Assembly: GCA_038064695.1 (NCBI GenBank)
Contig: JBBTSO010000004.1
Span: forward strand, 114,165 to 178,164
Reading direction: 5' to 3'
Length of the DNA stretch: 64,000 nucleotides
Origin: Patescibacteria group bacterium
Lineage (GTDB): Bacteria; Patescibacteriota; Minisyncoccia; Phycocordibacterales; Phycocordibacteraceae
Shown: in pieces, positions 13,945-63,346 of the stretch
How positions within the stretch are numbered: position 1 is the first letter of the stretch
Layout: the number at the start of each line of letters is the position of its first letter
Translations under genes and position numbers: made by a program
The notes under the pieces: model-generated
Database searches by the model: none
Seen by the model: the letters and a program-made list of their open reading frames with translations, nothing else
Told to the model about the DNA's origin: nothing

Positions 13945-13970
13945 TCACATTTTCCCTCAAAATCCGTCAT

Positions 13971-14004
13971 ACAACTATATCTGACGGTCGTCAGATATAG
14001 TTGT
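13971..14004. repeat. 34-bp perfect palindrome ACAACTATATCTGACGG|TCGTCAGATATAGTTGT, member of a 3-copy family
   Basis: Reverse complement equals itself. Related copies at 31439-31487 and 40774-40807 share the core TCTGACGGNCGTCAGA. Confidence 0.6.
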
Positions 14005-23768: not shown

Positions 23769-23856
23769 GCGGAAGAGGAGGGATTTGAACCCTCGATACC
23801 TTTTACAGTATGCCGGTTTTCGAAACCGGTGCAATAAACCACTATGCGACTCTTCC
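23769..23856 (-). tRNA. tRNA-Ser (anticodon CGA), long variable arm
   Basis: Hand fold: acceptor GGAAGAG/CTCTTCC, anticodon loop TTCGAAA, long variable arm, T-loop TTCAAAT. Confidence 0.8.
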
Positions 23857-23906
23857 GTATCGCCAAATCCTAGCATTTTAGGCAAAAAATGCTATATTTT
23901 AGCCAC

Positions 23907-23978
23907 GGCCTCATCGTCTAACGGCTAGGACACATCCCTTTCACGGATGAAATCGGGGTTCGATTCCCCGTGGGGTCA
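23907..23978 (+). tRNA. tRNA-Glu (anticodon TTC)
   Basis: Hand fold: acceptor GGCCTCA/TGGGGTC with two G-U pairs, D-arm GTCT/GGAC, anticodon stem CATCC/GGATG, loop CTTTCAC, T-loop TTCGATT. The overlapping ORF-track start at 23947 is therefore not real. Confidence 0.75.
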
Positions 23979-23982
23979 CCTA

Positions 23983-24777
23983 ATGATACTTTTGCCCACG
24001 CTCAAACGATTCTACTCATTTACTTCACAATGGAACTTGGGTTTGAAATGCCAGAAATTGGGGCTGGCGATTTTGAGCTATCTAAGGGGGATCTTCAAAC
24101 CCCCTAACGATGTTTTGAACCTAGCAGACAACGAAGAGTATAAAAAACGCTTCGCTACTTTATACAGTCATTTACTGGGAACTTCCGCCACTTTTTACTC
24201 ATGGAAAGGTTTACAGAAGAAAGACTACGAGCCCCTGTATGGCAGAGCAAAGTATTTTTGGGGTTCAGTCCTAATTGCGCTTCAGAATGAGTGGGTGATA
24301 AGTATTGCAAAGTGCTTTGAAAAATCGAGCTACAGTAGACGCAATGAGGTTATTTCCGTACATGCGTTACTCAGACATTACCTTCGTAGGCACATAGATT
24401 CCAGCAAAGCAGATAAAGTCAAAGCCCTTCTCAAGAAGCACAAGAAGGTGATTTCAAATATCTACCAGCTACGCCATAAGCTTGCCCATATAGACGCTAA
24501 ATATTTTGATAACCCGTCAGAGTTTTTAAAGAAATACCCAGTTGATTACGGAGAAGTTGAGGATTTATTGGCGGATTTTGCAGATTTACTTTCCTCTCTC
24601 AATCCAGAGTCAGGTGTTGGATACTCGTTGGATAATTACGTAAAAACTCCAGAATGGGAGGCTGGAGACGTTATGGACGAGATCAATTTTTATGTCCAAG
24701 AAGAGAAGAAGCATTTAGATAGGTTCTCTGCTGGCGAGACTGACGACCCGTTTCTTCTCCCAAGAAAAACGCCTTAA
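23983..24777 (+). CDS. HEPN-motif protein resembling abortive-infection (Abi_2/AbiU2-like) proteins; AT-rich gene inserted next to a tRNA cluster
   Basis: Rx4H motif in IYQLRHKLAHIDAKY (R-HKLA-H), about 265 aa, lysine-rich alpha-helical composition. Visibly lower GC than its neighbours. Start placed at the ATG at 23983, just after tRNA-Glu. Confidence 0.5.
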   Translation: MILLPTLKRFYSFTSQWNLGLKCQKLGLAILSYLRGIFKPPNDVLNLADNEEYKKRFATLYSHLLGTSATFYSWKGLQKKDYEPLYGRAKYFWGSVLIALQNEWVISIAKCFEKSSYSRRNEVISVHALLRHYLRRHIDSSKADKVKALLKKHKKVISNIYQLRHKLAHIDAKYFDNPSEFLKKYPVDYGEVEDLLADFADLLSSLNPESGVGYSLDNYVKTPEWEAGDVMDEINFYVQEEKKHLDRFSAGETDDPFLLPRKTP

Positions 24778-24850
24778 ATTCACAGCAATATGCGATATTT
24801 CTTTCAGCAACTCAATAATAGGTTTTGAATTTGCTATCGTTAGGGTCATG

Positions 24851-24889
24851 CCACCAAAAAACACCCATTGCTTGGGTGTTTTTTGGTGG
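24851..24889. terminator. Rho-independent terminator (CCACCAAAAAACACCCA-TTGC-TTGGGTGTTTTTTGGTGG)
   Basis: GC stem with flanking A- and T-tracts, after the HEPN gene. Confidence 0.55.
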
Positions 24890-24929
24890 CACATGAATCG
24901 ATGAAGATAATCGAAAGTCGGACTGAGCG

Positions 24930-25015
24930 AAGCGAGGGAGATGGGGTCGAGGACACTTAGTATTTTGCGAATGCCTGAAGCAAAATACTTAGTGAACCGT
25001 GACCGATTCTCTCAC
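24930..25015 (+). repeat. Copy A of a ~90-bp two-copy element (other copy at 60385-60476) with a 13-bp-stem hairpin; embeds a 60-aa ORF (24941..25123)
   Basis: ACTTAGTATTTTGC-GAATGCCTGAA-GCAAAATACTTAGTGAACCGTGACCG here versus ACTTAGCATTTTAC-GAATTCTTGAA-GTAAAATACTTAGTGACTCGTGACCG in copy B. Both ORFs share the peptide SR(T/A)LSILR..E(A/V)KYLV(N/T)RDR. Confidence 0.5.
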
Positions 25016-25117
25016 GGGTTTCCACGGGGAATCGAAAGATGGAGCGCAGTGAGCATCAGTAGATGCGAAGTGCGAGTCAGGGTCGTAGAAATTTCTGAGT
25101 GGCGACGAAGAAGTTAT

Positions 25118-25726
25118 CTATGACCGATGCGTGCCTGTGTACTCACCGGACATTTCCCCGTGGGGACACAAAAAGAAACTTCTTCGGAAGAAAGTGCGGA
25201 ATGCCTCCAGTCGAAGAAATGGTACGAGGTAGTTTTTTGCCACCCGTACTAACTCTATTACCCCCACTAATCCAACCGTGTACAAAAGGTCACCGAGGAG
25301 CATATTTTTTAGAAACGGAATACCCATTTCATATGCATGCAAGAGCCCGCTTATACTTTTTTCATACCATGGTGAAAATGCCCACACGGCGCCGTTAGTA
25401 ATGAAGAAAAAGAGAAAAGGGGAGAGAATGACTGGGAGTGTCAGAGACCATACCCCCGGTTTTCGCGAAAGCCAACTTAGTACGCCAATTGCAGCAAACG
25501 AACCGTAGACACTCGCCATAATGCGCCAATCGTAGAAACCAATAAATAAATCAGACATGGCGAGCGTTGCAGTTGGCACGACCAGTCCGATTCGTTTTCC
25601 AAAGTAAAGTGATCCGACGATTGCGAGTGCGGTTACAGGAGTCATATTAGGTGTGTGAGGGAGGAGGCGCATCAACGTACCGTACGCTATGAGGAGAAGA
25701 ACAGTAATAAGAGTGGTTCGTGTCAT
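25118..25726 (-). CDS. Polytopic membrane protein (5-6 TM); possibly an ECF-type substrate-capture component (inferred from B12 context)
   Basis: Hydrophobic helices throughout. First gene of the operon with DUF4430, PduO and NrdJ. The C-terminal ~40 aa look non-protein-like, so the true stop may be earlier. Confidence 0.45.
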   Translation of the reverse strand: MTRTTLITVLLLIAYGTLMRLLPHTPNMTPVTALAIVGSLYFGKRIGLVVPTATLAMSDLFIGFYDWRIMASVYGSFAAIGVLSWLSRKPGVWSLTLPVILSPFLFFFITNGAVWAFSPWYEKSISGLLHAYEMGIPFLKNMLLGDLLYTVGLVGVIELVRVAKNYLVPFLRLEAFRTFFRRSFFLCPHGEMSGEYTGTHRS

Positions 25727-31393: not shown

Positions 31394-31438
31394 CTTTAAT
31401 AATCCATTCTTCTCTTTAAATTATTTTATCAAAAATTG

Positions 31439-31487
31439 CCCCCCAATTATCTCTGACGGTCGTCAGAGATAATTGGGGGGGGGGGGG
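31439..31487. repeat. Palindromic element CCCCCC-AATTATCTCTGACGGTCGTCAGAGATAATT-G13 (member of the 3-copy palindrome family) between convergent genes
   Basis: Perfect 30-bp palindrome with C6/G13 extensions, giving a stem of about 36 bp. Likely a bidirectional terminator/hairpin. Confidence 0.6.
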
Positions 31488-34754: not shown

Positions 34755-34825
34755 TTTAGTTGCTAGTTGTTAGCGGTTAGTTTCTAGCTAAACACTAGCC
34801 ACCAGTAACTAGCCACTAGTTTAGG
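34755..34825. repeat. TAG-heptad intergenic repeat block (TTTAGTTGCTAGTTGTTAGCGGTTAGTTTCTAGCTAAACACTAGCCACCAGTAACTAGCCACTAGTTTAG) between ftsA and ftsZ
   Basis: Built from the words TAGTTGT, TAGCGGT, TAGTTTC and their complements CTAGCCA/CTAACCA, which recur at at least 9 other intergenic loci. Confidence 0.6.
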
Positions 34826-40738: not shown

Positions 40739-40770
40739 AAAAACCACCCGCTCTATCGGGTGGTTTTTTT
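40739..40770. terminator. Rho-independent terminator (AAAAACCACCCG-CTCTAT-CGGGTGGTTTTTTT)
   Basis: Perfect GC stem plus T7 tract. Confidence 0.6.
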
Positions 40771-40773
40771 AAT

Positions 40774-40807
40774 ACAATTATCTCTGACGGCCGTCAGAGA
40801 TAATTGT
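40774..40807. repeat. 34-bp perfect palindrome ACAATTATCTCTGACGG|CCGTCAGAGATAATTGT (member of the 3-copy family)
   Basis: Self-complementary. Core shared with 13971 and 31439. Confidence 0.6.
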
Positions 40808-49580: not shown

Positions 49581-49674
49581 CTTTTTAAATAATCTAGAAT
49601 TCTAGATTATTTTGGCAAGGGAATCAGATAGAGTGAGTGCGCGCAACGACCCGGCTCTGAGTCGGAGCGAAGAG

Positions 49675-49693
49675 GATTCCCGCCCCGGGCACT
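49675..49693 (+). repeat. 19-bp direct duplicate of the tRNA-Leu(TAA) 3' end (GATTCCCGCCCCGGGCACT), 92 bp downstream of the tRNA; att-like scar
   Basis: Identical to 49564-49582. The intervening 92 bp contains the perfect 26-bp palindrome AAATAATCTAGAATTCTAGATTATTT (49587-49612). Confidence 0.6.
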
Positions 49694-60276: not shown

Positions 60277-60280
60277 TGAC

Positions 60281-60312
60281 TAAAAGCAGCACCTACGTGC
60301 TGTTTTTTTGTA
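60281..60312. terminator. Rho-independent terminator (AAAAGCAGCAC-CTA-CGTGCTGTTTTTTTG) after tRNA-Trp
   Basis: Perfect stem plus T7 tract. Confidence 0.6.
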
Positions 60313-60384
60313 CAGGCGGGGGTCGGAGCGATGTCGTCCATTTTGGACGAAACCTTCACCTGTCTATGCAGGGACGTATGCTAC

Positions 60385-60476
60385 CTGCTGTCGCATACGT
60401 CGGGTCGCGAGCACTTAGCATTTTACGAATTCTTGAAGTAAAATACTTAGTGACTCGTGACCGCCGACTAACGTAA
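60385..60476 (+). repeat. Copy B of the two-copy hairpin element (see 24930-25015); embeds a possible 36-aa ORF (60366..60476) MQGRMLPAVAYVGSRALSILRILEVKYLVTRDRRLT
   Basis: About 85% identity to copy A over about 60 bp, including the hairpin and the CGTGACCG tail. One compensatory G-C to A-T change in the stem. Confidence 0.5.
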
Positions 60477-60487
60477 AATATACAACT

Positions 60488-63175: not shown

Positions 63176-63195
63176 AGTGCCCAGGGAGGGAATCG
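63176..63195 (-). repeat. 20-bp direct duplicate of the tRNA-Leu(CAA) 3' end (plus strand AGTGCCCAGGGAGGGAATCG), 149 bp from the tRNA; att-like scar
   Basis: Identical to 63345-63364, which overlaps the tRNA 3' end. Begins 1 nt upstream of the pyrF start codon. Confidence 0.6.
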
Positions 63196-63346
63196 GTCAC
63201 TGATAATTTTACTACGTAAAATTTCATCGACCCCGCCTCGACAGCGTCCCGATAACGGGACGGCTTTGCGTCTCCGGCTTTCTCCTCCCCCTATGGTAGC
63301 AAAATAATAGTCGCCGAACACGTTCGTGTCCGGCTCGTTTATTTAG

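Follow-up and report, generated by a model that had tools for sequence, protein, structure and literature searches.

A divergent HEPN_AbiU2-family gene on a tRNA-flank islet of a Patescibacteria genome as a candidate stand-alone defence gene

The DNA analysed here, referred to as the window, comprises 64,000 nt of contig JBBTSO010000004.1 (114,165 to 178,164) of a Patescibacteria group bacterium; coordinates are positions within it unless a homologous locus is named by its L-number. Directly behind a tRNA-Glu(UUC) gene lies an open reading frame (ORF) for a putative HEPN protein of the AbiU2 family (Table 1). A likely promoter with an extended -10 element (TGcTATATT) is situated just 5' of this tRNA gene, and the tRNA-Ser/tRNA-Glu pair found here also precedes the homologues in L010 and L006. 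The AbiU2 ORF has a stop-to-stop frame of 23929-24774 with its stop codon at 24775-24777, and 23983 is the first ATG beyond the tRNA. This ATG is 2 nt past the tRNA end called by ARAGORN and 5 nt past the discriminator base, from which the 5-nt spacing given in the original prediction is correctly counted. That prediction, made from the sequence alone, had described an AT-rich, 265-aa abortive-infection-like protein with the motif LRHKLAH. The ORF and the motif (residues 163-169) stand, while the length is corrected to 264 aa. In public gene calls on identical contigs, the ORF begins at an ATG within the tRNA and encodes 276 aa.

Table 1. Coordinates, strand and basis of the features described in the text.
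Feature	Position	Strand	Details
tRNA-Ser(CGA)	23769..23856	-	ARAGORN; Rfam 57.3 bits; divergent partner of tRNA-Glu
tRNA-Glu(UUC)	23907..23980	+	ARAGORN; 23907-23978 by Rfam, 58.5 bits
Left direct repeat TTCCCCGTGGGGTCAC, attL-like	23964..23979	+	16 nt, T-loop to 3' end of tRNA-Glu
AbiU2-family HEPN ORF	23983..24777	+	264 aa at maximum extent
HEPN_AbiU2 domain	24130..24720	+	Residues 50-246; local hidden Markov model, PF18734 matches of relatives, AlphaFold2 model
R164-H-K-L-A-H169, Rx4H catalytic-type motif	24472..24489	+	R and H invariant in 55 sequences
Conserved 71-nt cassette tail	24778..24848	+	DNA homology with L001, L010 and L071 ends at 24848
Terminator-like hairpin, ~20 bp	24849..24891		Internal A and T tracts; sequence and minimum free energy structure
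Structured non-coding mini-element	24892..25153		Repeat module, inverted T-arm copy; fold z-score -10
DUF6580 flanking core gene	25118..25726	-	Part of B12-related cluster
Right direct repeat TTCCCCGTGGGGACAC, attR-like islet boundary	25154..25169	+	15/16 match to left copy
TAG-rich repeat, direct copies	34756-34788, 40454, 41495, 41553, 41822, 52594, 62496
TAG-rich repeat, inverted copies	38658, 52635

The predicted AT-richness relative to the surroundings is confirmed. The GC content of the ORF is 41.6% compared to 47.4% for the window (z = -2.2), the lowest among 60 ORFs of at least 150 aa, and only 1.3% of equal-sized sliding windows are as GC-low. GC at third codon positions (GC3) is 46.8%, near the host mean of 46.9%. 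The AT-richness therefore derives from amino-acid content rather than foreign codon usage; the protein is rich in Lys (10%), Leu, and Tyr.

Membership of the HEPN/AbiU2 family (PF18734) was established through homologues and a local profile, since the window protein itself has no direct family match. Pfam hmmscan at E <= 10 returned no PF18734 match for the full-length protein or four trimmed versions. Scans of Pfam, PADLOC, NCBIfam, and PHROGs gave nothing above threshold, and PADLOC is without a model matching this protein. The sub-threshold matches (Cas13c, HEPN_Swt1, Abi_C, CARF-HEPN) are all HEPN, and each has the motif at its centre. Among 5.8 billion proteins searched, only eight homologues with 33-91% identity were recovered, and seven of these eight close homologues score 35-50 bits on PF18734, above its gathering threshold of 26.8 bits. 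A profile search of 1.84 billion cluster representatives identified 230 relatives at E <= 1e-3, mostly of 180-220 aa; 53 of the 55 aligned family members match PF18734. When run with filters off, a hidden Markov model (HMM) built from the 47 distant members only aligns to residues 50-246 of the window protein with a score of 181 bits. Because this profile recovers the protein and its 91% identical homologue P0001 scores 45.7 bits on PF18734, failure of the direct scan is most likely an artefact of the HMMER speed filters. On the basis of these comparisons, assignment to PF18734 is secure. The HEPN/AbiU2-type assignment proposed originally thus holds at family level, and the Pfam check suggested for it succeeds with the homologues while failing with the window protein itself.

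The motif is the most conserved feature of the alignment. R164 (codon 24472-24474) and H169 (codon 24487-24489) are the only invariant columns among the 55 aligned homologues. The bare pattern is uninformative, as the protein holds four R-x4-6-H matches and this is within chance. The family motif is R-[NDH]-x3-[AM]-H (Rx5H), and the clade of the window protein is one residue shorter, giving Rx4H. HEPN domains are recognized by an Rx4-6H motif with a polar N, D, or H after the arginine (PMC3710099); this residue is H165 in the window protein and N, D, or H in most relatives. Upstream of the motif, the acidic residue E113 is E or D in 53 of the 55 sequences.

An AlphaFold2 (AF2) model computed from a trimmed query with 12 sequences is all-helical, with a pLDDT of 84.3 and a pTM of 0.81. 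It replaced a first run with the full-length protein and nine sequences, which reached a pLDDT of 54. In the model, the motif arginine is at the C-terminal end of a helix and the histidine in the loop that follows, the placement described for HEPN domains (PMC3710099). A Foldseek search with the model gave no match. Between the window gene and four relatives, the ratio of nonsynonymous to synonymous substitution rates (dN/dS) is 0.065-0.093 at dS values of 0.7-1.3, which clearly indicates strong, long-term purifying selection on the protein.

This constraint does not extend evenly to the N-terminus. The conserved domain starts at approximately residue 50, and the first ~45 codons are leader-like and encode a variable N-terminal extension. 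Compared with L001, the first 45 codons (window 23983-24117, L001 10001-10135) have a dN/dS of 0.28 and a dS of 0.33, versus 0.045 and 0.80 for the remainder of the gene. As dS is low while protein constraint is relaxed, the segment may have a nucleotide-level function (leader or att arm) rather than a coding one. The relatives L010, L002, and L071 start at a conserved in-frame ATGTGGAATTTG ~75 nt after the tRNA, which is absent from the window and L001. The true start, either ATG 23983 or a TTG codon around 24058-24075, is therefore uncertain.

The gene is bracketed by a direct repeat of the tRNA end. The two copies of the 16-nt repeat, one inside the tRNA-Glu gene and the other 1.19 kb downstream, are its only matches in the window, compared to 0.03 expected by chance. 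The repeat was missed by a search with the 24-nt tRNA end allowing up to three mismatches and recovered with its 16-nt core. No integrase was found in the bracketed 1.19 kb, where the AbiU2 ORF is the sole convincing protein gene. Within the bracket, DNA homology with L001, L010, and L071 spans from the last tRNA bases to 24848. The final bases of the shared cassette tail, TTAGGGTCA (24840-24848), repeat the tRNA end GTGGGGTCA in degenerate form (8/10). These features place the gene on an islet at a tRNA-Glu T-loop/3'-end integration site. The view that tRNA 3' flanks act as landing pads is supported by the 15/16 repeat 1.19 kb downstream, by the use of two anticodons in relatives, and by the mini-elements of L006 described below. 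The islet adjoins core genes on both sides: PepQ on one, and DUF6580, DUF4430, cobalamin adenosyltransferase, and a class II-type ribonucleotide reductase on the other. The Pfam domain of DUF6580 ends at residue 161 of 202, but the ORF continues for ~35 further codons (25118-25225, minus strand) and reaches into the right-hand repeat; the insertion has probably generated this annotated C-terminus by read-through.

The non-coding parts of the islet also include repeated sequence. The mini-element contains a module at 24944-25005 that recurs at 60402-60463 with 84% identity, together with part of the tRNA-Glu T-arm in inverted orientation at 25022-25036; Rfam holds no family for 24892-25153. The downstream repeat element noted in the original prediction is thus real, with its second copy at 60402-60463, and its position is corrected from 24930 to 24944-25005. 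A small minus-strand ORF (24715-24894, conserved part 24779-24851) overlaps the 3' end of the AbiU2 gene. It starts at the cassette boundary at 24851 with ATG in the window and TTG or GTG in L001, L010, and L071. It is the sole frame open in all four relatives, and the ratio of nonsynonymous to synonymous differences (pN/pS) is 0.63. The 71-nt tail shows no conserved or covarying RNA structure on either strand. With this pN/pS value and the lack of covarying structure, both an antisense ORF and a structured RNA were rejected as parts of the cassette, and the case for the minus-strand ORF as a gene or antitoxin appears weak.

Comparable inserts lie behind other tRNA genes. A repeat of the tRNA-Leu(UAA) end occurs at 49673-49690 (2 mismatches of 18; insert 49581-49690) and one of the tRNA-Leu(CAA) end at 63179-63196 (1 mismatch; insert 63179-63345). 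Further inserts at 60277-60487 and at L006 4218-4846 are likewise short and downstream of a tRNA, with a repeat of its own T-loop-to-3'-end sequence as boundary. A terminator-like hairpin opens the inserts. A GGGTCGA-hairpin-GTGACCGATTC module is common to several of them and recurs behind tRNA-Trp and behind the AbiU2 gene. No Rfam family matches them. They look like scars or miniature derivatives of integrative elements that target the T-loop.

The relatives of the window gene all come from Paceibacterota-type contigs. Sequences 100% identical to the window were found in Hainich groundwater assemblies, and only those contigs share its flanks. Among 185,579 species-representative genomes, the sole match is L010 (85% identity), from a metagenome-assembled genome of Candidatus Paceibacterota. 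In this copy an in-frame TAG replaces the near-invariant W93 codon (L010 503-511); the copy is a pseudogene, or else the stop stems from an error of sequencing or assembly. The public protein entry for L010 (P0009) covers a fragment of 119 aa. When metagenomes were scanned with the PepQ neighbour, only relatives at <=40% identity emerged. No BLAST-level relative was found in plasmid or phage collections, and viral links were likewise not found. The subfamily is small and has so far been seen only in Paceibacterota-type contigs of the Candidate Phyla Radiation (CPR); within a known Pfam family, the window gene represents a divergent branch restricted to the CPR, and its location is of a classical kind.

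That location recurs at different tRNA genes. L002/L004 (82% identity) and L068/L069 (75%) carry the gene 43-80 nt behind tRNA-Glu(CUC), where both the tRNA gene and its flanks differ from those of the window. That tRNA-Glu genes of both anticodons, UUC and CUC, are occupied speaks for mobility. In L006 (54%), the gene follows the tRNA-Ser/tRNA-Glu(UUC) pair; upstream, this locus also has an ABC transporter with 49% identity to that of the window. Two non-coding elements of 215 and 413 nt separate the tRNA from the gene in this locus, each ending in an exact 16-nt tRNA-end repeat; L007 and L071 have the same repeat upstream of their AbiU2 genes. There is also mild evidence that the cassette does not simply track its host. 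AbiU2 identity to the window is 85% in L010 and 54% in L006, yet their tRNAs place L010 no closer (tRNA-Glu 79% in L010 and 90% in L006; tRNA-Ser ~83-84% in both). No empty site was recovered in a genome-contig scan (one locus), the PepQ-neighbour metagenome scan, or exact-protein look-ups, which led back to the same strain.

Some relatives occur beside restriction-modification (R-M) genes. L001 (91%) retains only the last ~10 nt of the tRNA. Immediately upstream it encodes a type III R-M-like Mod/Res pair, an OLD-TOPRIM ATPase, an Ltp lipoprotein, and an HTH_17 protein, an arrangement that fits insertion of a larger, roughly 10-kb R-M/OLD-nuclease element at the same junction. A degenerate tRNA upstream of the L001 copy was considered and rejected, given that neither ARAGORN nor Rfam detects one and that ~10 nt of the tRNA end are shared. 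A LOOT RNA (RF03000) lies at L001 6142-6263 (81 bits, cutoff 46.4 bits), between the HTH_17 and Ltp genes within the element upstream of the AbiU2 homologue. P0076, a distant Nomurabacteria relative, is the last gene of a C5-methyltransferase/HinP1I/Vsr R-M operon. Across the contexts examined (the window and the homologue loci), no conserved partner gene was found.

Transcription of the cassette can be predicted from the order of promoter and terminator. The first terminator-like structure past the tRNA-Glu promoter is the hairpin at 24849-24891, after the AbiU2 cassette, and there is none directly after tRNA-Glu. By contrast, the tRNA-Trp and two tRNA-Leu genes of the window have a terminator-like hairpin within ~20 nt (three tRNA flanks inspected). 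A sigma-70-type scan detected no promoter between tRNA-Glu and the AbiU2 domain. Since the cassette precedes the first terminator-like hairpin and has no detected promoter of its own, it is probably transcribed by read-through from the tRNA-Glu promoter.

Taken together, we consider it reasonably probable that the window gene encodes a stand-alone HEPN/AbiU2 RNase on a tRNA-flank islet and serves as an abortive-infection or toxin-type defence gene. Both the RNase activity and the defence role are predicted by analogy with characterized HEPN proteins. Following HEPN biochemistry, two copies of the protein would dimerise and their Rx4H motifs would form a metal-independent endoribonuclease site. 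Phage infection would unleash RNA cleavage, which would arrest the infected cell as abortive infection. Read-through from the tRNA-Glu promoter would supply the transcript, from which the AbiU2 message would be parted by tRNA 3'-end processing. The R-M operon of P0076 and the R-M/OLD defence island of L001 count in favour of a defence role, and the literature offers one direct precedent, in which resistance to T4 and T7 is provided by a Vibrio integron cassette encoding an AbiU2 HEPN domain (bioRxiv 10.64898/2026.03.17.712381). Several points call for caution. The eponymous L. lactis abiU2 showed no toxicity in E. coli (PMC3985639). Among the few relatives known, the gene keeps its position behind tRNA-Glu. 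In addition, it does not appear to be a recent arrival, because its GC3 is host-like and dS to the closest relatives is ~0.7.

The same observations can be read in other ways. It is unlikely, in our assessment, that the gene represents a promoter-less, integrase-less mini-cassette (~23981 to 24848) for the tRNA-Glu/terminator junction, mobilised in trans by a T-loop-targeting recombinase and expressed as a tRNA-mRNA co-transcript. The data allow such a cassette to move alongside 90-400-nt non-coding mini-elements at tRNA-Glu, tRNA-Leu, and tRNA-Trp flanks. tRNA 3' processing would then make the 5' end of an mRNA with an almost leaderless AUG, 5 nt past the discriminator base. Rather unlikely, too, is a selfish toxin or addiction module, in which the HEPN RNase stabilises the islet by post-segregational killing with an unrecognised RNA or small-peptide antitoxin and has no dedicated anti-phage role. 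HEPN domains are frequent as toxins of toxin-antitoxin (TA) systems (PMC3710099), and candidates for the antitoxin can be seen in the conserved tail after the stop codon and in the minus-strand ORF from 24851, whose frame alone is open in all four close relatives. However, the pN/pS of this ORF and the lack of conserved RNA structure in the tail count against them, and neither a minimal nucleotidyltransferase (MNT) nor another conserved protein neighbour is present; toxin and defence roles are in any case not mutually exclusive.

A lineage-specific housekeeping enzyme is improbable. Such an enzyme would be inherited vertically and co-transcribed with tRNA-Glu, and would help to mature tRNA, rRNA, or mRNA, much like Las1 and Swt1, two HEPN proteins of eukaryotes. 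The place behind tRNA-Glu, kept in every informative relative, agrees with this explanation, as do the macro-synteny of L006 with its comparably diverged AbiU2 protein, the host-like GC3, the strong purifying selection, and the lack of a detected promoter. Yet the gene is extremely patchy, with one locus among the species-representative genomes and nine proteins among 5.8 billion, and the L010 copy would be pseudogenised. Att-like repeats form its boundaries, two non-orthologous tRNA-Glu genes are occupied, and family relatives reside in R-M and defence contexts. The identities to L010 and L006 also disagree with the tRNAs. An inactive relic, i.e. a decaying cargo gene of an integrative element with no current function, is very improbable. 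The lack of an integrase, the scar-like surroundings, the premature stop in L010, and the ill-defined start codon would suit decay, but the frame is undisrupted over all 264 codons and still encodes the catalytic R and H, and dN/dS indicates long-term selection on the protein.

The proposed stand-alone HEPN/AbiU2 defence gene can be compared with several known systems. The type protein of PF18734 is AbiU2 of the Lactococcus lactis AbiU abortive-infection locus. Like the HEPN_AbiU2 family in general, the window protein has a single all-helical domain of ~190-220 aa, the R-[NDH]-x-x-x-[AM]-H motif, and the upstream acidic residue. It differs in the one-residue deletion that makes the usual Rx5H motif Rx4H, in the ~45-residue variable N-terminal extension, and in being unpaired with an AbiU1-like gene or Sel1 protein. 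Association of HEPN_AbiU2 relatives with R-M operons was noted by Anantharaman et al. 2013 (PMC3710099). The closest experimental precedent for stand-alone defence is the Vibrio mimicus integron cassette HNPBCG_15845, which encodes a dimeric HEPN AbiU2-domain protein and confers T4/T7 resistance (bioRxiv 10.64898/2026.03.17.712381). It, too, is a promoter-poor cassette with one gene, for a lone HEPN protein of the AbiU2 type, and is carried where site-specific recombination takes place, although this site is an integron attC rather than the tRNA T-loop/3'-end repeats of the window islet.

Resemblance to other systems is more partial. The HEPN-MNT type II/VII TA systems share the HEPN RNase toxin with its Rx4-6H motif, whereas no MNT is encoded beside the AbiU2 gene in the window or the homologue loci. 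The islet resembles tRNA-targeting integrative islands, which use tyrosine integrases and an attB from T-loop to 3' end, in that it abuts the tRNA 3' end and carries a T-loop-to-end direct repeat; tandem accretion in L006 and the larger HTH_17/R-M/OLD element at the same junction in L001 add to the likeness. Unlike these islands, it measures 1.19 kb and has one protein gene and no integrase, and the distal boundary of the AbiU2 cassette is only a degenerate 8/10 tRNA-end copy. The anticodon nucleases PrrC and RloC are also HEPN RNases, which act in anti-phage suicide with tRNA as substrate, but they are large proteins with a fused ATPase and are tied to type I R-M or to the sensing of DNA damage. 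Less likely still than the promoter-less mini-cassette is a role of tRNA-Glu as sensor or substrate for the RNase encoded here. The linkage to tRNA-Glu does not point to a substrate role: it is explained by the integration-site repeats, and similar repeats flank tRNA-Leu genes that have no AbiU2 gene.

According to one paper, the defence systems recognised so far in genomes of Patescibacteria (CPR) are very few (PMC12366544). The locus adds a lineage-restricted HEPN_AbiU2 subfamily that is unrecognised by the defence catalogues PADLOC and NCBIfam, and suggests that tRNA 3' flanks in the reduced genomes of Patescibacteria are integration hotspots gathering small elements. If expression is indeed driven by the tRNA, this would be a compact case of a defence gene that exploits the promoter of a housekeeping tRNA. 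If not, the result amounts to a sound, though ordinary, annotation of a gene yet to be characterised.

Two further kinds of repeat were observed elsewhere in the window. TAG-rich dispersed repeats of 33 nt (TTAGTTGCTAGTTGTTAGCGGTTAGTTTCTAGC-like) occur in at least seven direct and several inverted copies (Table 1). A perfect palindrome, CAATTATCTCTGACGG(T/C)CGTCAGAGATAATTG, is present in three copies (13957-14003, 31429-31475, 40760-40806) and could be an operator or terminator motif.

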